Shown here piece by piece: positions 3,010-62,362 of a stretch of 64,000 nucleotides of DNA; position 1 is the first letter of the stretch, and every line of letters starts with the position of its first letter. Position numbers and translations under genes: made by a program. Location of the stretch: positions 33,062 through 97,061 of the forward strand of contig CABRXF010000003.1 of assembly GCA_902474885.1 (NCBI GenBank). The letters are read 5' to 3'. This DNA is from an uncultured Collinsella sp. (lineage in GTDB: Bacteria; Actinomycetota; Coriobacteriia; Coriobacteriales; Coriobacteriaceae). The notes under the pieces are model-generated. The model ran no database searches and was not told the origin of the DNA. It worked only from the letters and a program-made list of their open reading frames with translations.

Positions 3010-3293
3010 TGGGCAAGACATATACGACCGCTAATGGTCAGGTTGTAACGGATGAAATGATTGACGCGTGGTGTGAGTCGTACGGGCGCGGAGAGTTTCC
3101 GGATGGCGAACACACCGTTGGTGGGATCGTGCATGGACGGCCCCCGCTCTCGGGTGAGGGGACGGCAACGCTATCGGTCAAGATTCCTCTGGGAATGAAG
3201 GAAGCTATTCGTCGGCGGGCGGCTGCCGAGGGGATGACGCCAAGTGAGTTTGCCCGTGCGGCCCTGAGTGAAAAACTTCTTGCTGCCGGTTGA
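3006..3293 (+). CDS. BrnA-like ribbon-helix-helix antitoxin
   Basis: 95 aa. C-terminal RHH (LSVKIPLGMKEAIRRRAAAEGMTPSEFARAALSEKL) matches BrnA/CopG-type antitoxins. Translationally coupled to the upstream toxin. Confidence 0.55.
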   Translation: MMGKTYTTANGQVVTDEMIDAWCESYGRGEFPDGEHTVGGIVHGRPPLSGEGTATLSVKIPLGMKEAIRRRAAAEGMTPSEFARAALSEKLLAAG

Positions 3294-3428
3294 TGCTTCT
3301 GACGTGCCGTTCTATAGGAGCGAGATCGTGGCCGATGTCGTGCTCAAAAACTTTTTTAAAATTCTCGGTTGACCGGAGCGCGTCCTTGGTTATACTAATC
3401 AAGCCTTGAAACAAGGCACACCTCAAAT

Positions 3429-3484
<56 letters not shown>

Positions 3485-3504
<20 letters not shown>

Positions 3505-3731
3505 TGAATTGACTAGGACCTCTGCAAAGGGGTCCTTTTCTTTTATGTGGCCCTTGCACGGAATCGAACCCCGTGAGGGCGCGGAGCTGAGGAAACGCGA
3601 TAGCGTTTGCCAGCGTAGCTCGCAAGGCGCGGAAGCGCCGCAGCGGTCCGCACGCGCGGAGCGCGGGCGCGATTCCCTTCCCCGCCACCTTGAATTGACT
3701 AGGACCTCTGCAAAGGGGCCCTTTTCTTTTA
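3485..3731. repeat. 61-bp direct repeat (3485-3545 and 3671-3731, one mismatch). It comprises the 3' end of tRNA-Phe from the T-loop onward plus the downstream terminator hairpin, and flanks a 125-bp GC-rich insert. Resembles an attL/insert/attR arrangement.
   Basis: gattcccttccccgccaccttgaattgactaggacctctgcaaagggg(t/c)ccttttctttta occurs twice. The insert begins with an inverted T-arm-like tggcccttgcacGGAATCGAACCccgtg. Confidence 0.8.
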
Positions 3732-3970
3732 CCGAGGGCTCCTGCGGAAAATGCATCCCATTATTGAGCGGAAAAACGGAACGAGCTTTCCGGCACGCGT
3801 GTGCATTTCGGCGCGCCATCTCGGGCCCGTCTGCCCGGACATTCCTCCCACTTTTGCGCCACTTTGTAGACCGTTCGGTCGCCTGTCCGCACGCGCGGGT
3901 ATACTCAAAACGATACTTTTCCTATGCAATACGATGCAGGCTCGACCTGCGCGATTCGAAGGGGGCCGTG

Positions 3971-5032
3971 ATGGAGAGGATTCTCGGCGTTAATCTCTCT
4001 GGCTGGTTTATTCCCGAGCCCTGGGTGACCCCGTCGCTCTATGCAGCGACCGGAGCATCCAATGCAGCCGAGCTGCAGGAGGCCATGGGCACCGCTGCCT
4101 ATAACGAGCGCATGCGTCGCCATTACGAGACGTTTGTGAGCGAGGATGATTTTCGTCGTATGGCGCAGATCGGTCTCAACGCCGTGCGCCTGCCGGTGCC
4201 GTGGTATGCCTTTGGCTCGCAGGAGTCAGACGCTTCCTACATCTCGGTCGTCGATTATATCGACCGTGCTATTGAGTGGGCCGCCAAGTACAACATCCGC
4301 GTACTGCTCGATCTGGCGACTGTGCCCGGCGGTCAGGGCGATTCCAACGATTCGCCCACCACGCCGGAGGCTGTTGCCGAGTGGCATTCGTCTACCAATG
4401 GCCGTCACGTTGCGCTCGATGTGCTCGAGCGCCTGGCCGATCGCTACGGTGAAGCCGAGAGCCTGCTGGGCATCGAGCTGTTGGATACGCCGCAGATGAG
4501 CGTACGCAAGAGCCTCTTTACCATGACGGACGGTATTCCGGCGCACTACCTGCGCAACTTCTATCGCGACGCGTACGAGCTCGTTCGTTCGTATATGCCC
4601 GAGGACAAGATCGTCGTCTTTTCCTCTTCGGGGCACCCTGGCGAGTGGAAGCACTTTATGCGCGGTGCCAAGTACAAGAACGTCTACATGGACCTTCACC
4701 TGTACCATTACCGCGACGAGTATGCGCTCGACATCACGAGCCCCCGCGGTCTGACTACGGCGATTTCGCGCAACAAGCGTGAGCTCAAAGAAGCTATTGC
4801 AACCGGGTTTCCCGTGTTGGTGGGCGAATGGTCGGGCGCGGCGATCTTCGCCAATTCGTCGGTTACGCCCGAGGGCCGCAATGCCTACGAGCGCGTGTTT
4901 ATCGCCAATCAGCTGGCTTCGTTTGCGCCGGCGGCTGGCTGGTTCTTCCAAACGTGGAAGACCGAGAAGCGCATTGCGGCATGGGACGCCCGCGCGGCAC
5001 TCGGCACGCTCGAGCGCGGCATGATTGAATAG
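3971..5032 (+). CDS. Glycoside hydrolase family 5 protein (cellulase / beta-glucanase-like)
   Basis: 353 aa from MERILGVNLSGWFIPEPW. Typical GH5 N-terminus (LGVNLSGWF...EPW) and a VLVGEWSG block near the C-terminal catalytic Glu. The upstream part of ORF 3509..5032 is a spurious read-through of the repeat region. Confidence 0.7.
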   Translation: MERILGVNLSGWFIPEPWVTPSLYAATGASNAAELQEAMGTAAYNERMRRHYETFVSEDDFRRMAQIGLNAVRLPVPWYAFGSQESDASYISVVDYIDRAIEWAAKYNIRVLLDLATVPGGQGDSNDSPTTPEAVAEWHSSTNGRHVALDVLERLADRYGEAESLLGIELLDTPQMSVRKSLFTMTDGIPAHYLRNFYRDAYELVRSYMPEDKIVVFSSSGHPGEWKHFMRGAKYKNVYMDLHLYHYRDEYALDITSPRGLTTAISRNKRELKEAIATGFPVLVGEWSGAAIFANSSVTPEGRNAYERVFIANQLASFAPAAGWFFQTWKTEKRIAAWDARAALGTLERGMIE

Positions 5033-5038
5033 GTTGAT

Positions 5039-5917
5039 ATGACGCAAAATAGCGCCCGTACGGGCAAACTCTATGTGGTCGGAACGCCCATCGGTAACCT
5101 GGGCGACTTGTCTCCGCGCGTCGGAGAGGCATTTGCCGCCGCCGACGCCATCTGCTGCGAGGACACGCGCGTGACGTCAAAGCTGCTGATGCACCTAGGC
5201 ATTTCCAAGCCGCTCGTCCGTTGCGACGAGAACGTGATCGCAGGTCGCGCCGCCGGGCTGGTCGACCGCCTGCTGGCGGGGGAGACCCTTGCCTTTGCCT
5301 CGGACGCCGGCATGCCGAGCGTGTCCGATCCCGGTCAGGCTCTGGTTGAGGCGGCGCGCGAGGCCGATGTGCCCGTCGAGGTCATCCCCGGGCCTTCCGC
5401 ATGCGTTACGGCGCTCGTATCGTCCGGCATTCCCTGCGAGCATTTCTTCTTCGAGGGCTTTTTGGGCCGCAAACACGGCGACCGCGTGCGTCGCCTGCAG
5501 CGTCTGGCCGTGGTGCCCGGCGCGCTCATCTTCTACGAGTCTCCACATCGCATTGTGGCGACGCTCGAGGCCGTGGCCGAGGTCTTTCCCCAGCGTGAGG
5601 TTGCCGTCTGCCGCGAGCTCACCAAGCTGCACGAGGAGGTCTTGCGTGGGTCTGCCGCCCAGCTTGCCGAAGAGCTGTGCGCCCGCGGTGAGGTGAAAGG
5701 CGAGATTGCGCTGGTCATCGCGCCGCCGAGTGAAGACGAGGAGGCCGGCATCACGCCGGTTGGCGCCGCAGCGGTAGACCCCGACGAAGCCCTGCGCGAG
5801 GACATTCGCACCGCGCTCGAGGAGGGAGAGCCCGCCTCCGCGGTGGCAAAGCGCCTGTCTCAGAAGTACTCGCGCCGCAAGCGCGATGTCTATGCCATGG
5901 TGCTCGATATGCAATAG
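5039..5917 (+). CDS. rsmI: 16S rRNA (cytidine1402-2'-O)-methyltransferase
   Basis: LYVVGTPIGNLGDLSPR...CEDTRVTSKLL...ALVSDAGMPSVSDPG are characteristic of RsmI. Confidence 0.85.
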   Translation: MTQNSARTGKLYVVGTPIGNLGDLSPRVGEAFAAADAICCEDTRVTSKLLMHLGISKPLVRCDENVIAGRAAGLVDRLLAGETLAFASDAGMPSVSDPGQALVEAAREADVPVEVIPGPSACVTALVSSGIPCEHFFFEGFLGRKHGDRVRRLQRLAVVPGALIFYESPHRIVATLEAVAEVFPQREVAVCRELTKLHEEVLRGSAAQLAEELCARGEVKGEIALVIAPPSEDEEAGITPVGAAAVDPDEALREDIRTALEEGEPASAVAKRLSQKYSRRKRDVYAMVLDMQ

Positions 5918-5986
5918 ATGGAGGATATCCAGCCCTTGCGCTAGAATCATCCCCTGTATGCAACGTTTTTCTGGAGGACAAACCCC

Positions 5987-7588
5987 ATGGATCAAAGCAA
6001 GCCTTCGTTCTTTATCACGACGCCCATCTACTACGTCAACGCCGATCCGCACCTGGGCACGGCTTATTCCACCATCATCGCCGACGTCCAGGCTCGCTAT
6101 CGCCGCTCCGCCGGCTATAACGTCAAGTTCCTGACCGGTATGGACGAGCATGGCGAGAAGGTCGCCGAGGCTGCAGCCAAGCACAACATGACGCCGCAGG
6201 AGTGGACCGACAGCCAGGCTCCGCACTTCAAGGAGCTGTGGAGCAAGCTCGAGATTTCCAACGACGACTTCATCCGCACCACCGAGCCGCGCCAGCATCA
6301 TGCCGTGCAGTACTTGTGGGAGCGCATGAAGGAGTCCGGCTACCTGTATAAGGGCAGCTACGATGGTTGGTACTGCGTGCCTGACGAGACCTACTTCACT
6401 GATACGCAGGTCCAGAAGGGCGACGAAGAGTACGGCAGCGTTGGCCAGCACCTGTGCCCCGACTGCCACCGTCCGCTTGAGCGCGTGCAGGAGGAGTCCT
6501 ACTTCTTTAAGCTTTCCGCCTTCCAGGACAAGCTGCTCAAGCTCTATGACGAGCACCCCGATTTTGTCGAGCCCGCGTTCCGCATGAACGAGGTGCGTAG
6601 CTTTGTCGAGGGCGGCCTTAACGACCTTTCCGTGAGCCGCACGAGCTTTGACTGGGGCATTCAGGTCCCGTTTGACGAGGGTCACGTTACCTATGTGTGG
6701 TTCGACGCGCTGCTCAACTATATGACGGCCGTCGGCTACGGCGTCGATACCGACGAGGCCCGTGCCGAGCTGGCCTATCGCTGGCCCGCGCAGTTCCACA
6801 TCGTGGGCAAGGACATCATCCGTTTCCACTGCGTCATTTGGCCGGCCATGCTCATGGCCATTGGCGAGGCTCTGCCCGAGCACGTCTTTGCCCATGGCTT
6901 CCTGACCGTGCGCAATGCCGAGACCGGCAAGGCCGAGAAGATGTCCAAGAGCCGCGGTAACGCCATCGCTCCGCAGGATGTTATCGACATGCTGGGCGTC
7001 GAGGGCTATCGCTACTACTTTATGACCGACGTGGTGCCCGGCACCGACGGCGCCATCAGCTTCGAGCGCATGGAGCAGGTCTACAACGCCGACCTGGCCA
7101 ACAGCTGGGGCAACCTCATCTCGCGTTCGCTCAACATGAGCGGCAAGTACTTTGACGGTTGCGCGCCCGCCAAGCCCGCATCGTTCGATGCGTTCGACAA
7201 CCCGCTGGCAAAGATTGCCGACGGCCTGGTCGATCGCTACATGGCCAAGATGGACGTGCTCGATTACGGTGGAGCTAAGGACGAGGTCATGGAGCTCATC
7301 CATGCCGCCAACCACTACATCGAGGACTCCGAGCCTTGGGCGCTTGCCAAGGACGAGGCCAAGGCTGACGAGCTGGCGTTTGTGATCTACAACCTGCTCG
7401 AGGCCATCCGCATTGCCGCTCACCTGCTGATGCCGCTCATGCCCCAGACTTCTGCCGAGGCCCTGCGTCGCCTGTCCTGCGAGGACGAGGCCGCGAGCGA
7501 CGACCTCAAGGGCATTTGCGCTTGGGGCCTGCTTGCCGGTGGTCAGCCCGTCGAGAAGGGCGAGCCGCTGTTCCCGCGTCTGGGCTAA
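5987..7588 (+). CDS. metG: Methionine--tRNA ligase (short form)
   Basis: TTPIYYVNADPHLGTAYS (HIGH region) and KMSKSRGN motifs. 533 aa. Confidence 0.9.
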   Translation: MDQSKPSFFITTPIYYVNADPHLGTAYSTIIADVQARYRRSAGYNVKFLTGMDEHGEKVAEAAAKHNMTPQEWTDSQAPHFKELWSKLEISNDDFIRTTEPRQHHAVQYLWERMKESGYLYKGSYDGWYCVPDETYFTDTQVQKGDEEYGSVGQHLCPDCHRPLERVQEESYFFKLSAFQDKLLKLYDEHPDFVEPAFRMNEVRSFVEGGLNDLSVSRTSFDWGIQVPFDEGHVTYVWFDALLNYMTAVGYGVDTDEARAELAYRWPAQFHIVGKDIIRFHCVIWPAMLMAIGEALPEHVFAHGFLTVRNAETGKAEKMSKSRGNAIAPQDVIDMLGVEGYRYYFMTDVVPGTDGAISFERMEQVYNADLANSWGNLISRSLNMSGKYFDGCAPAKPASFDAFDNPLAKIADGLVDRYMAKMDVLDYGGAKDEVMELIHAANHYIEDSEPWALAKDEAKADELAFVIYNLLEAIRIAAHLLMPLMPQTSAEALRRLSCEDEAASDDLKGICAWGLLAGGQPVEKGEPLFPRLG

Positions 7589-9506: not shown

Positions 9507-9593
9507 GCGGGCGTGGCGGAATTGGCAGACGCGTACGGTTCAGGTCCGTATGGGGGCAACCCCATGAAGGTTCAAGTCCTTTCGCCCGCACCA
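9507..9593 (+). tRNA. tRNA-Leu (anticodon CAG)
   Basis: GCGGGCGTGGCGGAATTGGCAGAC...anticodon loop TTCAGGT...long variable arm...GGTTCAAGTCC...CGCCCGCACCA. Confidence 0.85.
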
Positions 9594-9600
9594 TTAAATG

Positions 9601-9631
9601 AAAGAGCTCCCAGCAATGGGAGCTTTTTTGT
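9601..9631 (+). terminator. Rho-independent terminator after tRNA-Leu
   Basis: GAGCTCCCAgcaaTGGGAGCTTTTTTG. Confidence 0.7.
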
Positions 9632-9685
9632 TACGGGCCGTTTTTGGCAGATTTGACCTATCGATTTCGCGCGGCAGATGCCCCT

Positions 9686-9904
9686 GTGGTCAAAAAGTGG
9701 CAAATATGAGTACTGGCACGAAAATAGAGACATTTCACGAAGCCATTTTTGCTCATTTTGCGCAACAGATGTACGCTAATTTGACTCAATCTTGAGACAA
9801 AACGAAGTAAATTCGATAGACCCTGGGTTCAAAGAGGCGATTTTGACCCAAATACGCTGTTACTAAACTGGTAACAGTACTCATATTTGGCCTTTTTTGA
9901 CCAC
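9686..9904. repeat. MITE-like element, copy 1. 219 bp, bounded by ~30-bp terminal inverted repeats.
   Basis: Left end gtggtcaaaaagtggcaaatatgagtactg. Right end cagtactcatatttggccttttttgaccac. A second copy of identical size lies at 58478-58697. Confidence 0.7.
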
Positions 9905-9981
9905 GGGTCCTCTTGTTGGTGTCACACGGCTGCTTTGTGCGGGTATCCTAGTCCCAACGCGTGCCTATCAGAGGAGAAACC

Positions 9982-10920
9982 ATGCTGTTGTCCGGTATCA
10001 TCGCTACCCTTACGAGCCTTCTGCTTCCCATCATCATTTTGTTGCTACTGCTCCCCAACGCCTGTTATGTCGTTGAGCAGCAGCATGCTGTGATCATCGA
10101 GCGCTTGGGCAAGTTCAACCGCATCGTCAACGCGGGCTTCCACATGAAGGTGCCCGTGATCGACCGCAAGGCCGCCACGGTGAGTCTGCGCACCATGAAA
10201 AACGGTTTTGGCATCGACGTTAAGACCCAGGACAACGTGACTATCGGCCTTGAGGTCTCTGCTCAGTACCACGTGAGCTATGACATGGGCGCCGGCCCGG
10301 CAGATTCGGGCATCTACAAGAGCTACTACATGCTGCAGGAGCCCGTCGACCAAATGCGTGACTTCATCACCGATGCCCTGCGCTCTTCCATCCCCGTCTA
10401 CACGCTCGATGAGGTCTTTGCCAAAAAAGACGATATCGCCAAGGACGTCAACGCCACCGTGTCCGAGCAGATGGCCGCCTACGGCTTCACCCTCGTGTCG
10501 ACACTTATCACCAAGATCGCGCTGCCGACCGAGGTCGAGAACTCCATGAACGACATCAACGCCGCCCAGCGAAAGCGCGCCGCTGCGCAGGAGCTCGCCG
10601 AGGCCGATCGCATCAAGCGCGTTACCGAGGCGACCGCCGAGGCCGAGGCGATGGAAAAGGCAGGCGAAGGCATCGCCAACCAGCGCAAAGCCATCGCACT
10701 GGGCATCAAGGACTCGCTCGAGATTATCCAGGAGACGGGCGTCGGCAACGATGAGGCCAACCAGCTGTTCATGTTTACGCAGTGGTCCGAGATGATGACG
10801 GAGTTCGCTCGCACGGGCAAAACCTCGACGGTCGTGCTGCCGAGCGATTTCTCACAGTCGGCCTCGATGTTCGAGCAGATGCTGACCGCCGGCAAAGTTC
10901 AGAACGAGTCGAAGGAGTAG
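9982..10920 (+). CDS. SPFH / band 7 (stomatin-prohibitin-like) domain protein
   Basis: N-terminal transmembrane segment, then VVEQQHAVIIERLGKFNRIVNAGFHMKVPVIDR (band-7 fold), then an Ala/Glu-rich coiled coil. GAGGAG ribosome-binding site before the ATG at 9982. Confidence 0.8.
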   Translation: MLLSGIIATLTSLLLPIIILLLLLPNACYVVEQQHAVIIERLGKFNRIVNAGFHMKVPVIDRKAATVSLRTMKNGFGIDVKTQDNVTIGLEVSAQYHVSYDMGAGPADSGIYKSYYMLQEPVDQMRDFITDALRSSIPVYTLDEVFAKKDDIAKDVNATVSEQMAAYGFTLVSTLITKIALPTEVENSMNDINAAQRKRAAAQELAEADRIKRVTEATAEAEAMEKAGEGIANQRKAIALGIKDSLEIIQETGVGNDEANQLFMFTQWSEMMTEFARTGKTSTVVLPSDFSQSASMFEQMLTAGKVQNESKE

Positions 10921-12241: not shown

Positions 12242-12396
12242 ACTGACCAATAAGGGACAGATTTATTTTGCAGGGTTTTCCTGCGGTTTTGTACCTTGGG
12301 CAAAAAGCGCCCCGCAGCTGGCTCAATTCCAGTTGCGGGGCGCTTGCGTTTGCCCAGATAAAACCGACCAAAATAAGCCTGTCTCTATTTGGCAGG

Positions 12397-12570
12397 TTAG
12401 TCCCAGAAGCTGTCTTCCTCATCCTCGGACTTGGGGCCGCGGTCGACATACATCTTATGGGTGCGCTTCTCCATCACAAAGGCAAGAATCGCAAATAGCA
12501 GGATGCCGCCGGCGAAAAGGATGGCAAAACCGGTGCGGGTGCCAAACAAAAAGGAAAAAACTGCGTCCAT
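12397..12570 (-). CDS. Small hypothetical membrane protein, 58 aa (below the ORF-track cutoff)
   Basis: Minus-strand ATG at 12570 to TAA at 12397. Translates MDAVFSFLFGTRTGFAILFAGGILLFAILAFVMEKRTHKMYVDRGPKSEDEEDSFWD, with one clear transmembrane helix. Confidence 0.35.
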   Translation of the reverse strand: MDAVFSFLFGTRTGFAILFAGGILLFAILAFVMEKRTHKMYVDRGPKSEDEEDSFWD

Positions 12571-14670: not shown

Positions 14671-14936
14671 ATCGAACTTAAAGCCTCCGGCAACGGGGGC
14701 TTTTCTTTTAGGCGGACGCCGCATGGATTCGAACCTCGGTCGAGGCGCGGGCGTCAAGAAAACGCGGAGCGTTTTTAGCCCGCGGGCGAGTCCGCCGGCA
14801 GGCGGGCGAAGCCGGTGCGAATCCGCGCAAGCGGATACGCGGAATCCTATACGCCGCACCAATTGAAATTGAAAGCCTCCGGCAACGGGGGCTTTTCTTT
14901 TAGGCAGACGCTGCATGGATTCGAACCTCGGTCAAT
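14651..14936. repeat. Roughly 93-bp direct repeat (14651-14743 and 14842-14936, ~90% identity). Each copy comprises the 3' end of tRNA-Arg from the T-loop onward, a terminator hairpin, and the start of a GC-rich insert. About 1.5 tandem units with a 191-bp period.
   Basis: gaatcctatacgccgcacca-at(c/t)gaa..aagcctccggcaacgggggcttttcttttaggc(g/a)gacgc(c/t)gcatggattcgaacctcggtc occurs twice. Confidence 0.8.
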
Positions 14937-43805: not shown

Positions 43806-43832
43806 TCGATAGCCCTGTGGCTCTCACCGGGA

Positions 43833-43951
43833 CCCGATGGGTTTCCCTCTGAATGCGTCCTCGCACTTGAAGCCCCCTTATCCTGCTCCTTCGGAGCTGT
43901 GGATAGGGGGGCTTCGTGCTGCGGAATGCATTCAGAGGGAAACCCATCGGG
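43833..43951. repeat. A 119-bp nested palindromic element. The outer stem is a perfect 24-bp repeat, the inner stem is ~14 bp, and the apical loop is GCTCC-TTCG-GAGC.
   Basis: cccgatgggtttccctctgaatgc...gaagcccccttatcc..gctccTTCGgagc..ggataggggggcttc...gcattcagagggaaacccatcggg. Confidence 0.75.
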
Positions 43952-44179
43952 CCCCTTCGTCCTCGGTCTTCTGGGATTAAAGCTGAGGAGAAGAATGGCG
44001 CGCTTCTCGCCTTACGACTGTAGCGGCCGCGGTCCCGTTTGGGATCGCGGCCGTTTTGTTGTGGGTCAAATATGAACGTTATGTTAACGACTCGGTGGAC
44101 GGTGGCGTTTTTCGGTGAGCGGCGTATCCTTCCAACGGTTTATCTAGTGTGTCAGTTGAAAGGAAGAGGGCGCTCGTCA

Positions 44180-46260: not shown

Positions 46261-46390
46261 CCGGGTCCGGCATAGGTTAACTTTCCGCCGCGTCCTCGGA
46301 CATGCAAGAAGCTCCCGCTGCGCACTTCGTGCGGCGGGAGCTTCTTGCGTCCTGCGGAGTGCGGCGGAAAGTTAACCTATGCCGGACCCT
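46261..46390. repeat. A 130-bp nested palindromic element, homologous to the one at 43833-43951. The outer stem is ~29 bp, the inner stem is 14 bp, and the apical loop is GCAC-TTCG-TGC.
   Basis: ccgggtccggcataggttaactttccgccgc...caagaagctcccgctgcgcacTTCGtgcggcgggagcttcttg...gcggcggaaagttaacctatgccggaccc. The internal gcgtcctcg and ctgcggaRtgc motifs are shared with the other element. Confidence 0.75.
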
Positions 46391-49616: not shown

Positions 49617-49803
49617 GGTGCGGCAATTGTTTCGTCTCCGTCAAGTCTTTGGGCAGGAGCTACTTTTCCGCGGCACATCGACACAGGTGCGATAAGATAG
49701 AACGCCATGTCTGGCTGCGCGGTTTACGCAGGCTGGGCAAATCTGTACGACGCCGCCCGGAACGACACGGGGCGGCACAGATCCATAAAGGAGGATCACT
49801 GGT

Positions 49804-51591
49804 ATGAGCCAGACCCGTCCCATCGACGAGCATTCCATGCACACCCGTACCTGCGGCGAGCTTCGCCGCGAGAACGTGGGCGAAGAGGTCACCCTCACCG
49901 GTTGGGTGAGCCGTCGCCGCGATCACGGCGGCCTTATTTTCTGCGACCTTCGCGACCGCGAGGGCATCACGCAGCTCACCTTCGACCCCGAGCACTCCGA
50001 CGGCGACGCCTTTAAGATTGCCGAGACCATGCGTCCCGAGTGGCCTATCAAGATCCACGGCGTCGTGCGCTCCCGTGGCGAGGAGACCACCAACGCCAAG
50101 CTCGCGACCGGCGAGATCGAGGTCCTGACCGACCACGCCGAGGTGCTCAACACTTCCGTCACCCCGCCGTTCCAGATCGAGGACGGCATCGAGACCAGCG
50201 AGGACACCCGTCTGCGCTATCGCTATCTGGACCTCCGTCGTCCCGAGATGATGGCAAACCTCAAGCTGCGCTCCGACTTTACCTTTGCCATTCGCGAGGC
50301 GCTGCACAACCGTGAGTTCATGGAGGTCGAGACGCCCTCCCTGTTCAAGTCCACGCCCGAGGGCGCCCGCGACTTCATCGTCCCCAGCCGCATCCAGCCG
50401 GGCAACTTCTACGCTCTGCCGCAGTCCCCGCAGCTTCTGAAGCAGCTGCTCATGGTCGGTGGCGTCGAGCGCTACTACCAGGTTGCCAAGTGCTTCCGCG
50501 ACGAGGACCTGCGTGCCGACCGTCAGCCCGAGTTTACTCAGGTCGATATCGAGATGTCCTTCGTGGACCAGAACGATGTCATGAGCGCGCTCGAAGAAGT
50601 CCTGTCCGATGCCTTCGGCCGCATGGGTGTCGAGATGCCCACGCCGCTGCGTCGCATGGACTACTGGGATGCCATGGACACCTATGGCTCCGACAAGCCC
50701 GATACCCGCTATGGCATGCACCTGGTCGACCTGACCGACATCTTTGCCAACTCCAAGTTCAAGGTCTTTGCGACCGCCGCAAATGAGGAGGGCTCTGTCG
50801 TCAAGGCCATCAACGCCAAGGGCGCCGGTGCCTGGGCACGTGCCAAGATCGATAAGCTCGCCGGCGTGGCCTCCACGTTTGGCGCCAAGGGCCTGGCCTG
50901 GATCGCCTTCCGCGAGGACGGCTCCATCAACAGCCCCATCGTCAAGTTCTTCTCGGACGAGGAGATGGCCGCTCTGCGCGAGCGCATGGACGTCGAGCCC
51001 GGCGACCTTGTGATGTTCGCCGCCGGCCCGCGCCTGCTCTCCGACGAGATCCTGGGCGGCATGCGTTCGCACATGGCCAACGCACTCGAGATCAAGCGTG
51101 AGGGTCACGACTTCCTGTGGGTCGTCAACTTCCCGCTGCTCCATTGGGACGAGGACCGCAAGGCCTACGCTGCCGAGCACCAGCCCTTCACCCTGCCGAC
51201 CGAGACCGACATCGCCAAGATCGAGGCCGACCCGTTGGCAGCCGGTTCTTGCACCTACGACTTTGTCATGGACGGCTTTGAGGCCGGCGGCGGCGGCATG
51301 CGTATCCACAACGCCGAGATGCAGATGTCCATGCTCAAGCTCCTGGGCTTTACCGAGGAGCGCGCCGAGTCTCAGTTTGGCTTCCTCATGGAGGCCCTCA
51401 AGTTTGGTGCGCCCCCGATGGGCGGTTTTGCTCTGGGCCTGGATCGCGTGTGCATGCTGCTCACCGGTTCCGACTCCATCCGCGACGTCATGGCGTTCCC
51501 CAAGACGGCCAGCGGCTCCGACCTCATGTCGGGCGCCCCGAGTGCCGTTTCCGGCGCCCAGCTCAAGGACGTCAGCCTGCGCCTGATGTAG
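49804..51591 (+). CDS. aspS: Aspartate--tRNA ligase
   Basis: AAGGAGGA ribosome-binding site. OB-fold N-terminus. FRDEDLRADRQPEFTQVDIEMSF (motif 2). GGGMRIHN...GLDR (motif 3). Confidence 0.9.
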   Translation: MSQTRPIDEHSMHTRTCGELRRENVGEEVTLTGWVSRRRDHGGLIFCDLRDREGITQLTFDPEHSDGDAFKIAETMRPEWPIKIHGVVRSRGEETTNAKLATGEIEVLTDHAEVLNTSVTPPFQIEDGIETSEDTRLRYRYLDLRRPEMMANLKLRSDFTFAIREALHNREFMEVETPSLFKSTPEGARDFIVPSRIQPGNFYALPQSPQLLKQLLMVGGVERYYQVAKCFRDEDLRADRQPEFTQVDIEMSFVDQNDVMSALEEVLSDAFGRMGVEMPTPLRRMDYWDAMDTYGSDKPDTRYGMHLVDLTDIFANSKFKVFATAANEEGSVVKAINAKGAGAWARAKIDKLAGVASTFGAKGLAWIAFREDGSINSPIVKFFSDEEMAALRERMDVEPGDLVMFAAGPRLLSDEILGGMRSHMANALEIKREGHDFLWVVNFPLLHWDEDRKAYAAEHQPFTLPTETDIAKIEADPLAAGSCTYDFVMDGFEAGGGGMRIHNAEMQMSMLKLLGFTEERAESQFGFLMEALKFGAPPMGGFALGLDRVCMLLTGSDSIRDVMAFPKTASGSDLMSGAPSAVSGAQLKDVSLRLM

Positions 51592-58373: not shown

Positions 58374-58477
58374 CGGCTAGGATTAATCTACGGCTGTGGA
58401 ATAAATCGATTCCCTTTCCTAAGGAGGGGCCTTACGAGGCCCCTTCTTTTGTGTTTTGGGGCATGGTTTTGGACCCC

Positions 58478-58697
58478 GTGTTCAAAAAATGCCAAATATG
58501 AGTACTGCTGCAAAAAAGGTGCCATATTTTTCGGTCTGTTTTGAGCGAAAATGGGCTCACAATCAATTTATCTAACCCCCTTTAAAGGGCGTTTGACAGC
58601 TTTCAACCTCTTCGAATCGCTCAAAGTAGGCAAATGGCTCTCGATTTTGCTGCTACTAAATTGGTGACAGTACTCATATTTGCCACTTTTTGCCCAC
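58478..58697. repeat. MITE-like element, copy 2. 220 bp with ~30-bp terminal inverted repeats.
   Basis: Left end gtgttcaaaaaatgccaaatatgagtactg. Right end cagtactcatatttgccactttttgcccac. The subterminal right-arm block tactaaaYtggtRacagtactcatattt is shared with copy 1. Confidence 0.7.
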
Positions 58698-58794: not shown

Positions 58795-59043
58795 ATGGTC
58801 GAGTTTACAAAGACGATTAAAGATCCGTTGGGACTGCATGCCCGCCCGGTTGCGTTGCTCTATGACATTATTGCCAAGCATCGTAGCGGCGTGTCGGTCA
58901 GCATCGGCGACCGCCATACCGACGGTCGCGACGTTATAGGGCTCATGGCACTCTGTGGCGAATGTGGCGAGGACATCGTGTTCCGCGTTTCGGGTGTGGA
59001 TGAGGCTTCCTGCGTTACATCGATCAGAAATCTCTCGCTCTAA
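58795..59043 (+). CDS. HPr-family phosphocarrier protein (solo)
   Basis: 82 aa from MVEFTKTIKDPLGLHARPVA, the HPr active-site His motif. GGGAGGGG ribosome-binding site. Confidence 0.7.
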   Translation: MVEFTKTIKDPLGLHARPVALLYDIIAKHRSGVSVSIGDRHTDGRDVIGLMALCGECGEDIVFRVSGVDEASCVTSIRNLSL

Positions 59044-62187: not shown

Positions 62188-62362
62188 GTCCGAATAAGGA
62201 TTAACCCCTTTCCACGAGCCCGGGTGTCCCAGCGACACTCGGGCTTTTTGGTGGGGGAGATGTGGCGTTTCCGCAGATAAAACTGATCAAAATAAGCCCG
62301 TCCCTTTTTTGTGGGTGGAGAATGGGGTAAAGTAAGTGGTGGTTAACTAGAGGAGGCTTGCT

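Follow-up and report, generated by a model that had tools for sequence, protein, structure and literature searches.

Several classes of short interspersed repeat have been described in bacteria. Correia elements (CREE/NEMIS) of Neisseria are 100-155 bp long, carry 26-bp repeats and a TA duplication, and number hundreds per genome. ERIC (IRU) elements, of 127 bp, and REP/BIME (REPIN) elements of enterobacteria and pseudomonads are imperfect palindromes, some of which bind host proteins; REPINs are linked to RAYT genes, which are IS200-like. Miniature inverted-repeat transposable elements (MITEs) derived from insertion sequences (ISs), such as RUP of Streptococcus pneumoniae and the Tn3-derived TIMEs, have a defined target-site duplication and a parent IS or transposon with the same repeats. 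Bacteroides invertons are invertible promoters present at many loci of one genome. Here we describe a family of interspersed inverted-repeat elements in Collinsella, starting from two copies in a 64,000-nucleotide stretch of contig CABRXF010000003.1 from an uncultured Collinsella sp. (assembly GCA_902474885.1), hereafter the window. Our full-text literature searches turned up no description of such interspersed repeats in Collinsella or Coriobacteriia.

The Collinsella elements resemble each of these classes in part. With Correia elements they have in common a short, non-coding, intergenic sequence with terminal inverted repeats, a few discrete length classes, polymorphism for presence and absence, a possible central protein-binding site and ends that can add promoter or terminator signals. 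They differ from them in length (209-231 bp), in having ~50-nt arms, in showing no TA or other clear duplication and in numbering ~10-20 per genome (an estimate discussed below), and there is no sequence similarity between the two. Like ERIC and REP/BIME elements, they are imperfect palindromes that can fold back on themselves, lie at gene 3′ ends and between convergent genes, and are kept at orthologous sites across species. However, we know of no report of length classes one helical turn apart for ERIC or REP/BIME, and unlike REPINs the Collinsella elements showed no link to RAYT; the one IS200-type gene that we encountered, in locus L093, has its own ends. They share with IS-derived MITEs the terminal inverted repeats, small size, lack of an open reading frame, dispersal and polymorphic occupancy, but neither a defined target-site duplication nor a parent IS or transposon was found for them. 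Finally, they recall Bacteroides invertons as ~200-bp segments bounded by inverted repeats with a consensus common to many loci per genome, but no orientation polymorphism was seen among assemblies, the Collinsella repeats are asymmetric and considerably longer, and for many copies there is no gene that they could drive. The elements fit the MITE/foldback class, with the Correia, ERIC/REP-BIME and IS-derived MITE families as their nearest counterparts, yet belong to none of these: they have no sequence similarity to them, another size, no TA or other fixed duplication and no RAYT link.

Two copies in the window

An earlier note on this DNA had proposed two ~220-bp copies with inverted ends, and both lie precisely where it placed them. 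The two ends of an element are unlike, and we call them A and B:

9686..9904, + strand: copy 1, 219 bp, delimited by its inverted repeats; B end left and A end right
9686..9735, + strand: B arm of copy 1, GTGGTCAAAAAGTGGCAAATATGAGTACTG followed by a B-type subterminal segment
9763..9774, no strand assigned: central motif of copy 1, caacagatgtac, of the ACAnnTGT type, ~77 nt from the B end, the fixed offset of the family
9855..9904, - strand: A arm of copy 1, with the dyad CTGTTACCAGTTTAGTAACAG at 9857-9877
58478..58697, + strand: copy 2, 220 bp, delimited by its inverted repeats; B end left and A end right
58478..58527, + strand: B arm of copy 2
58648..58697, - strand: A arm of copy 2, with the dyad CTGTCACCAATTTAGTAGCAG at 58650-58670

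The 14-mer AAATATGAGTACTG occurs exactly four times in the window, once in each arm, against an expectation of 0.06. The subterminal block CTGTYACCARTTTAGTARCAG, noted before as common to the two right arms, is found in the window only at 9857-9877 and 58650-58670, where no occurrence would be expected. A repeat search of the window recovered the direct pairs D13 and D14 and the inverted pairs I2-I5; I2 and I5 bound the two copies, and D13, D14, I3 and I4 are arms matching between copies. One extra TTTTTGCCCAC, at 20012, falls inside a gene.

The arms in the window span 30-50 nt with 76-94% complementarity. Terminal inverted repeats of ~30 bp had been proposed; the inverted ends are there, but the conserved arms are longer, at ~50 nt. 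The interiors, said to be diverged, do not align between the copies. Folded as single-stranded DNA, each copy forms a long end-to-end hairpin (-44.3 kcal/mol, z = -6.6 for copy 1; -39.6 kcal/mol, z = -5.2 for copy 2). The open reading frames that overlap the elements are short and not conserved between the copies, which indicates that the elements are non-coding. No Rfam 15 covariance model, including Collinsella-1, matched the window at its gathering score, and at E<=10 nothing relevant was found on either copy. A consensus promoter scan found no promoter in either window copy, or in one copy from a site beside folD that is described below.

A dispersed family in Collinsella

We scanned one genome per GTDB species with the query CAAAAANNNNCAAATATGAGTACT, demanding 20 exact bases in one arm. 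At least 120 loci matched, and those listed are all Collinsella or Coriobacteriaceae DNA apart from two mislabelled bins. These bins, titled Methanobrevibacter smithii (L099, CAVHBE010000048.1) and Alloprevotella sp. (L101, CAVGCW010000011.1), hold Collinsella-type elements and flanks, and probably reflect binning contamination. A complete element is present in 101 of the loci listed, the remainder being cut by the locus edge or interrupted by an IS. Both arms lie within two mismatches of the core in every complete element, i.e., in the 101 listed loci and the two window copies.

Clustering of the 800-bp flanks separated at least 14 distinct sites, each present in 3-11 species, to which we refer by letters or by a neighbouring gene. 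Interior subfamilies recur at different sites, for example at the folD site (site A) and at sites D and J, so the copies are related by duplication or transposition rather than by convergence. The possibility left open earlier, that only the two window copies exist, syntenic everywhere and without polymorphism, gives way to a dispersed repeat family of at least 120 listed loci at 14 or more flank-defined sites.

Searched against PLSDB, the arm query gave seven matches, corresponding to ~3-4 elements, in the 900-kb C. aerofaciens record NZ_OY725717.1; the first 150 kb of this record contain no arm match. The record (loci L148-L151) is labelled ‘plasmid 6’ of C. aerofaciens TSDC17.2-1.1, but carries recA, ftsK, lexA, ribosomal protein and tRNA-synthetase genes, and is a chromosome segment rather than a plasmid. 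The copy number in the C. aerofaciens group is probably ~10-20 per genome. Phage and true plasmid records gave no match to the arm (PLSDB and phage BLAST). Six IMG/VR contigs do hold copies, whose arm types are those of sites E and I; we take these as host DNA, and reject a phage or plasmid origin. A profile of the arm (nhmmer) found no solo or decayed arms in ~1 Mb of loci, the 150 kb of the C. aerofaciens record and the rest of the window, which rules out ‘fossil’ solo or degenerate arms over ~1.1 Mb.

Anatomy of the elements

Each arm of ~50 nt consists of an outer box, GTGGNCAAAAAA, 3-4 variable bases and an inner box, CAAATATGAGTACTG. The A end continues as a dyad, CTGYYAC-N7-GTRRCAG, and the B end as CTGTTGC..GTCACATAT. 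In the window, the B ends are at 9686 and 58478 and the dyad-bearing A ends at 9904 and 58697. The elements of site C have two A ends, as does one of the pair of copies at site K. Outside GTGG/CCAC, the inverted repeat frequently continues for another 4-5 nt, as CCCC..GGGG. Variation in the A-end dyad is mostly of the Y/R type and uncompensated, with C.A in 19 of 70 unique sequences. We therefore read the dyad as a sequence motif and not as a proven RNA helix, and reject the idea of a covarying RNA hairpin.

Toward the middle, many elements of the site B, E, F, G, H and SPFH groups carry the motif C[AC]ACA[TG][AC]TGT[CT]C, 76-78 nt from the B end. Copy 2 has no central motif of this ACAnnTGT type. 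An alternative reading of the interior as GAAC-N4-GTTC (LexA/Cheo-box) gave only partial matches; what is conserved is ACAnnTGT at an offset of ~77. The 230-bp subfamily has an interior hairpin whose structure is kept while its sequence varies. At sites A, D and J the interior contains a 15-bp GC-rich hairpin followed by TATTTTATTG, which our scan scores as a terminator when read from B to A. The folD gene has no terminator of its own, and this hairpin and TATTTTATTG come directly after it.

We also considered promoter readings of the arms. A sigma-54 promoter was rejected by eye because the spacing is wrong, and a sigma-70 promoter because the scan finds none. A TTGGCA-16/17-TATAxx arrangement, combining TTGGCA of the B arm with a TATA-like hexamer in the flank, is confined to sites A, F and C. 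Modules that begin with GTTTTKG and resemble the module to the left of copy 1 precede the B arm at other sites.

A variant arm, GTGGTCAAAAAACGCCGTTTGTGAGTACTGTCACAAACGGCG, occurs at L025 7220-7272 and 5504-5556, L111 7377-7429 and L098 200-251. It has a perfect 12-bp hairpin centred on GTAC in place of the inner box. Since such arms are paired with a standard A arm, they constitute a sister subfamily.

Conservation of the arms and quantised lengths

Among orthologues, conservation per column is 0.92-1.0 in the arms and dyad versus 0.55-0.8 in the interior. Pairs with 300-bp flanks of only 72% identity still have arms that are 90% identical, against 74% for the interior. Our second sample comprised 41 distinct filled folD alleles, which were found through the FolD protein and not through the arms. 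Here, arm cores reach 0.97-1.0, the interior 0.66-0.9 and the flanking coding DNA mostly 0.85-0.95. No element with one intact and one decayed arm occurs among the loci listed.

The two arms of an element also vary together. At variable positions, agreement is 0.553 between the arms of one element versus 0.44 between elements (p<2e-4). All four Watson-Crick pair types occur at the GTGG-N-C position, GTGTGC is matched by GCACAC, and complementarity often reaches 3-4 nt beyond the arms, where two pair types are found. There is no strand bias among G-T pairs, which therefore do not indicate a particular transcript.

The core-to-core spacing falls into only three sets: 162 bp (3 elements), 171-173 bp (48) and 182-184 bp (51). 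In the folD-site sample, which was not chosen by arms, it is 182-184 bp in 52 elements. Total lengths are correspondingly 209, 218-220 and 229-231 bp. Length can change within a site: the element of L105 measures 220 bp against 230 bp in its orthologues, and that of L073 218 against 230 bp. The spacing thus steps by one helical turn (10-11 bp). Steps of this size are characteristic of duplex DNA, and would most simply mean that whatever binds both arms has to sit on one and the same face of the helix. With two sequence boxes, strong constraint and helical phasing, the conserved ends are good candidates for protein recognition sites, as had been suggested.

Genomic context

We determined gene context for ~100 listed loci with a codon-usage gene caller trained on the window. 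At 35 of these loci the element lies between convergent genes and at ~40 between tandem genes, while none lies between divergent genes. Every listed element adjoins at least one gene 3′ end, and it is usually the B end that faces this 3′ end. The neighbouring genes, which include those for SPFH and HPr, and folD with a C69 dipeptidase gene, have no common functional theme. The surroundings of the two window copies are as follows:

9507..9593, + strand: tRNA-Leu(CAG), upstream neighbour of copy 1, with a terminator hairpin at 9605-9624
9635..9639, no strand assigned: short direct repeat GGGCC, left indel junction of copy 1, with GGGTCC at 9905-9910 as its partner
9640..9685, + strand: left module of copy 1, gtttttggcag...gcccct, missing together with the element in empty alleles
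9905..9910, no strand assigned: short direct repeat GGGTCC, right indel junction of copy 1
9982..10920, + strand: SPFH/Band_7 gene, downstream neighbour of copy 1
58421..58458, + strand: intrinsic terminator of an amino-acid permease gene, upstream neighbour of copy 2
58797..59043, + strand: PTS HPr gene, downstream neighbour of copy 2

Both copies end 78-100 nt before the start of the downstream gene, and a good terminator precedes each. The earlier description of the elements as lying upstream of a gene and downstream of a terminator is therefore accurate for the two window copies, but does not extend to the family as a rule, given the 35 loci between convergent genes.

An IS256-family IS (end GGTAGCGCGCAGAGATGTGGTGTAAGAG) interrupts or adjoins elements in several loci (L008 at ~870, L037 at ~800, L103 at ~7230, L148 at 3060-4700, and the flanks of L063, L068 and L116). 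These cases include the SPFH-site copy in L008 and the folD-site copy of C. aerofaciens TSDC17.2-1.1. The insertions may reflect a preference for these elements or for AT-rich intergenic DNA.

Presence, absence and replacement at single sites

Comparison of occupied and empty sites across relatives, proposed earlier as a check, found both states at two sites, those of SPFH and folD. The SPFH site is filled in the window and in L032, L052 and L062, and is empty in L133, L135, L134 and L128-132. In L133 and L135 the SPFH protein is 91-94% identical and the order TatD - tRNA-Leu - SPFH is the same, with the element missing. L128-L132 and L134 have instead a ~190-bp unit, a duplication of the tRNA 3′ end and terminator. 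Relative to L134, the window has 271 extra nucleotides at 9640-9910, made up of the 46-nt left module and the element, with GGGCC/GGGTCC at the junctions. What varies between relatives at the SPFH site (~271 nt) is thus larger than the part bounded by the inverted repeat. SPFH homologues at a greater distance (83-87% identity) stand among other genes, lack the element and are uninformative on the empty site.

We compared the folD site across 61 metagenomic loci that encode a FolD protein of 94% identity or more, and found it filled in 40 and empty in 21. The two states require at least 14 changes on a neighbour-joining tree of the flanking genes, although recombination between strains may have inflated this count. 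The indel junctions are GGCGTTTTG/GGCATTTTTTG. Empty alleles read GC[A/G]TTTT(TT)G[A/C]CCAC, which combines the left junction GGCGTTTTG with the GGCATTTTTTGACCAC of the A arm in hybrid form; G and A forms both occur, and the length of the T run varies. These empty alleles look like losses through slippage deletion between short direct repeats. Long inverted repeats stimulate such deletions; ‘precise excision’ of IS10/Tn10-type elements is the classical example. At the HPr site no empty alleles were found, and the site is filled in every relative that keeps the permease-HPr synteny.

Elements can also be exchanged in place. At sites B, C, E and G, the flanks align up to the arms and the interiors no longer align, while length and central motif are kept. 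At site B, the A/B polarity in L016-type genomes is opposite to that in L001/L036/L081-type genomes. This inversion is old, its interiors having since diverged beyond detection by BLAST. Of 700 orthologous pairs whose interiors are still detectably homologous, not one shows an inversion against its flanks. In L075, the flank of site A is joined to the element and far flank of site F, and L029 shows a similar arrangement for sites C and I. These joins are consistent with rearrangement by recombination between elements or between copies of the TAGGGGGTTAGTTATAT flank motif that sites A, F and C share.

Mobile repeat, host element or recombination module

We give about an even chance to the reading that the elements are an old, non-autonomous, MITE-like foldback repeat family whose arms are phased protein-binding sites. 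Under this reading, one trans-acting DNA-binding protein would bind the asymmetric arm sites; it might be a transposase or recombinase, still active and encoded elsewhere, or a host protein in that role. The protein would bring both ends together on the same face of the helix, and this requirement would explain why only lengths one helical turn apart exist. The family would have spread in the past to ~15 or more intergenic sites, always beside at least one gene 3′ end, would have been inherited vertically since, and would repeatedly have lost copies by slippage between short direct repeats. The family shows most features by which a MITE or foldback repeat is recognised, with inverted repeats at its ends, small size, no open reading frame, dispersed copies and polymorphic occupancy. 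Constrained arms in old copies and the helical phasing between them speak for arms that still function as protein-binding sites. Protein binding, a need for looping or synapsis, and past transposition are what these sequence patterns suggest to us.

Several observations weigh against this reading. The target-site duplications that we looked for did not appear in unambiguous or consistent form at the SPFH or folD junctions. The sequence directly outside GTGG/CCAC is inverted, not direct, and the SPFH (GGGCC/GGGTCC) and folD junctions lie at different positions relative to the arms. Nor was an autonomous partner with these arms found among 120 + 80 + 6 loci, in PLSDB or by phage BLAST. The only long candidate, a 995-bp copy in L093, proved to be an IS200/IS605 tnpA element (5840-6600) with its own hairpin ends nested in the interior of a site F element; it contains the sole Y1-type transposase gene that we met, and no copy was seen linked to RAYT (IS200-like Y1 transposase). 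A similar IS200/IS605-type end lies just outside another copy, in the left flank of L080. The IS256-family IS was rejected as a partner too, its ends (GGTAGCGCGCAGAGATGTGG...) being unrelated. No insertion event was caught directly, and the copy number of the family is low. In empty folD alleles the final 13 nt of the A arm survive in hybrid form, which points to deletion rather than to a target that was never occupied. Filled folD alleles have diverged along with their flanks, and hence are old orthologues and not recent insertions. Because the filled alleles are old and the empty ones look like losses, mobility is something we infer rather than demonstrate. Finally, the arms of copies that are old and immobile are under purifying selection. 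A purely selfish MITE would not lead one to expect this, and it suggests a role at the level of the host.

Such a role is central to a different explanation, possible though on balance unlikely, that the elements are palindromic units of the REP/BIME/ERIC type maintained by the host at gene 3′ ends whatever their origin, either as transcribed long hairpins that stabilise or terminate the mRNAs upstream or as sites for a nucleoid or topology protein between converging transcription units. This would account for the selection on arms in old orthologous copies, the outer-stem complementarity kept by covarying changes, the strong foldback of both window copies (-44 and -40 kcal/mol, z = -6.6 and -5.2), and a context that always includes a gene 3′ end, with 35 convergent and no divergent loci among the ~100 listed. 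The GC-rich 15-bp hairpin and TATTTTATTG of sites A, D and J, placed directly behind a folD gene that has no terminator, fit as well. However, single copies are dispensable and repeatedly lost, the 10.5-bp quantisation of length is a property of duplex DNA and not of RNA, the absence of a strand bias in wobble pairs indicates no transcribed strand, both window copies already stand behind good terminators, and the sequence-specific boxes are conserved far beyond the needs of pairing. A family of small structured RNA genes is highly improbable. The ends and some internal hairpins of the elements are conserved, and the hairpins of the 230-bp class keep their structure despite sequence change, but Rfam gives no match even at E<=10, the A-end ‘hairpin’ varies mostly without compensation (C.A in 19 of 70), no promoter was detected in the copies scanned, and the interior is hypervariable. 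Paired transcription-factor operators that loop out DNA to control the promoter of the adjacent gene, a possibility raised in the earlier note, would explain two conserved sites in helical phase ~170-185 bp apart, the placement of both window copies 78-100 nt upstream of a gene start, and the B-arm TTGGCA 16-17 nt from a TATA-like flank hexamer at sites A, F and C. They nevertheless fit the family poorly: the 35 convergent loci have no promoter to control and no copy lies in a divergent promoter region, the promoter scan was empty for both window copies and the folD-site copy, the neighbouring genes lack a functional theme, and the TATA-like flank is confined to a few related sites. We regard this explanation as very unlikely.

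The remaining alternatives invoke recombination. If a dedicated recombinase moved a cassette in and out at the short core GGCRTTTTTTG beside NCCAC, its action at a fixed core would explain both the repeated gain and loss at one position and the differing interiors at one site. The 14 or more state changes at the folD site with identical boundaries each time, the allele replacement at fixed positions of sites B, C, E and G, and the presence in empty folD alleles of GGCATTTTTTGNCCAC, the inverse of the B-arm outer box, are all in keeping with this. The size of the elements, with arm sites and a central palindrome at a fixed offset, also recalls intasomes of the attP type. On the other hand, the indel boundaries differ between the two sites examined (SPFH and folD), the hybrid G/A forms and variable T runs of the empty alleles fit slippage better, filled alleles have diverged with their flanks and are not recent re-integrations, no recombinase gene is linked to any copy, and recombination between strains could also scatter both states over the tree; we consider such a cassette distinctly improbable. 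An inverton, flipped by an invertase acting between the inverted repeats, is hardly credible. The size, the inverted-repeat layout and the sharing of repeats by many loci would suit it, as would the opposite polarity of the L016-type and L001/L036/L081-type elements at site B. But that single inversion is old, with interiors diverged past BLAST detection, each arm is asymmetric and unlike a dimer-type crossover site, and with none of the 700 orthologous pairs inverted we reject an inverton at the level of assemblies.

A bolder interpretation, which we find rather improbable, is that the arms are not relics of a transposon, but the two halves of a nucleoprotein device that is selected by the host or serviced by a recombinase. 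A protein bound to both ~50-nt arms would loop exactly 16-18 helical turns of DNA that is otherwise free to evolve; such units would occupy ~15 positions beside gene 3′ ends, and could be excised or replaced at a fixed core of the GGCATTTTTTGNCCAC type. If true, this would be a phase-locked chromosomal looping or recombination module without a described counterpart in Actinomycetota.

Other repeats and motifs

The window contains further repeats. Tandem units of ~186-192 bp that duplicate a tRNA 3′ end and terminator lie at 3479-3545 / 3665-3731 and 14675-14741 / 14867-14933 (pairs D1 and D2). Units of this kind also occur in L128-L134, around 2700-2900, and are present or absent downstream of the tRNA-Leu at the SPFH site. 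They resemble remnants of integrative elements, of the att type, or a second family of repeats. A 52-nt direct repeat with 81% identity (D12) is found at 12346-12397 and 62265-62316, in one case behind proC and a small DUF6724 gene and in the other behind feoB. Copies of the D12 type lie ~60-100 nt from site H elements in L004, L006, L020, L072 and L099; D12 is a separate short intergenic repeat family. There are also two strong inverted repeats at 43829-43955 and 46263-46389 (55-nt arms with 80% complementarity and a 17-nt loop; perfect 29-nt arms 69 nt apart). An aspS RNA motif (RF02930, 76 bits) at 49709-49792 lies upstream of a 596-aa gene at 49804-51591.

Significance for Collinsella

Collinsella is an abundant and very diverse genus of the human gut, and its elements stand out by length classes one helical turn apart, by arms more conserved than the neighbouring genes and by recurrent loss at one position. 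Constrained inverted ends, a free interior, whole-turn lengths and recurrent same-site loss make them a compact and clean case. Filled and empty alleles segregate within populations whose FolD proteins are at least 94% identical, and so can serve as strain-level markers. The elements are also substrates for recombination that has already reshuffled flanks, as seen in L075, which joins a site A flank to a site F element, and in the site B inversion. At the folD site, an element puts a strong predicted terminator between two genes that are otherwise adjacent, and heritable differences in expression between strains may follow. If a protein that binds the arms is found, the family would offer a natural system for DNA looping or synapsis on 160-185 bp of DNA.

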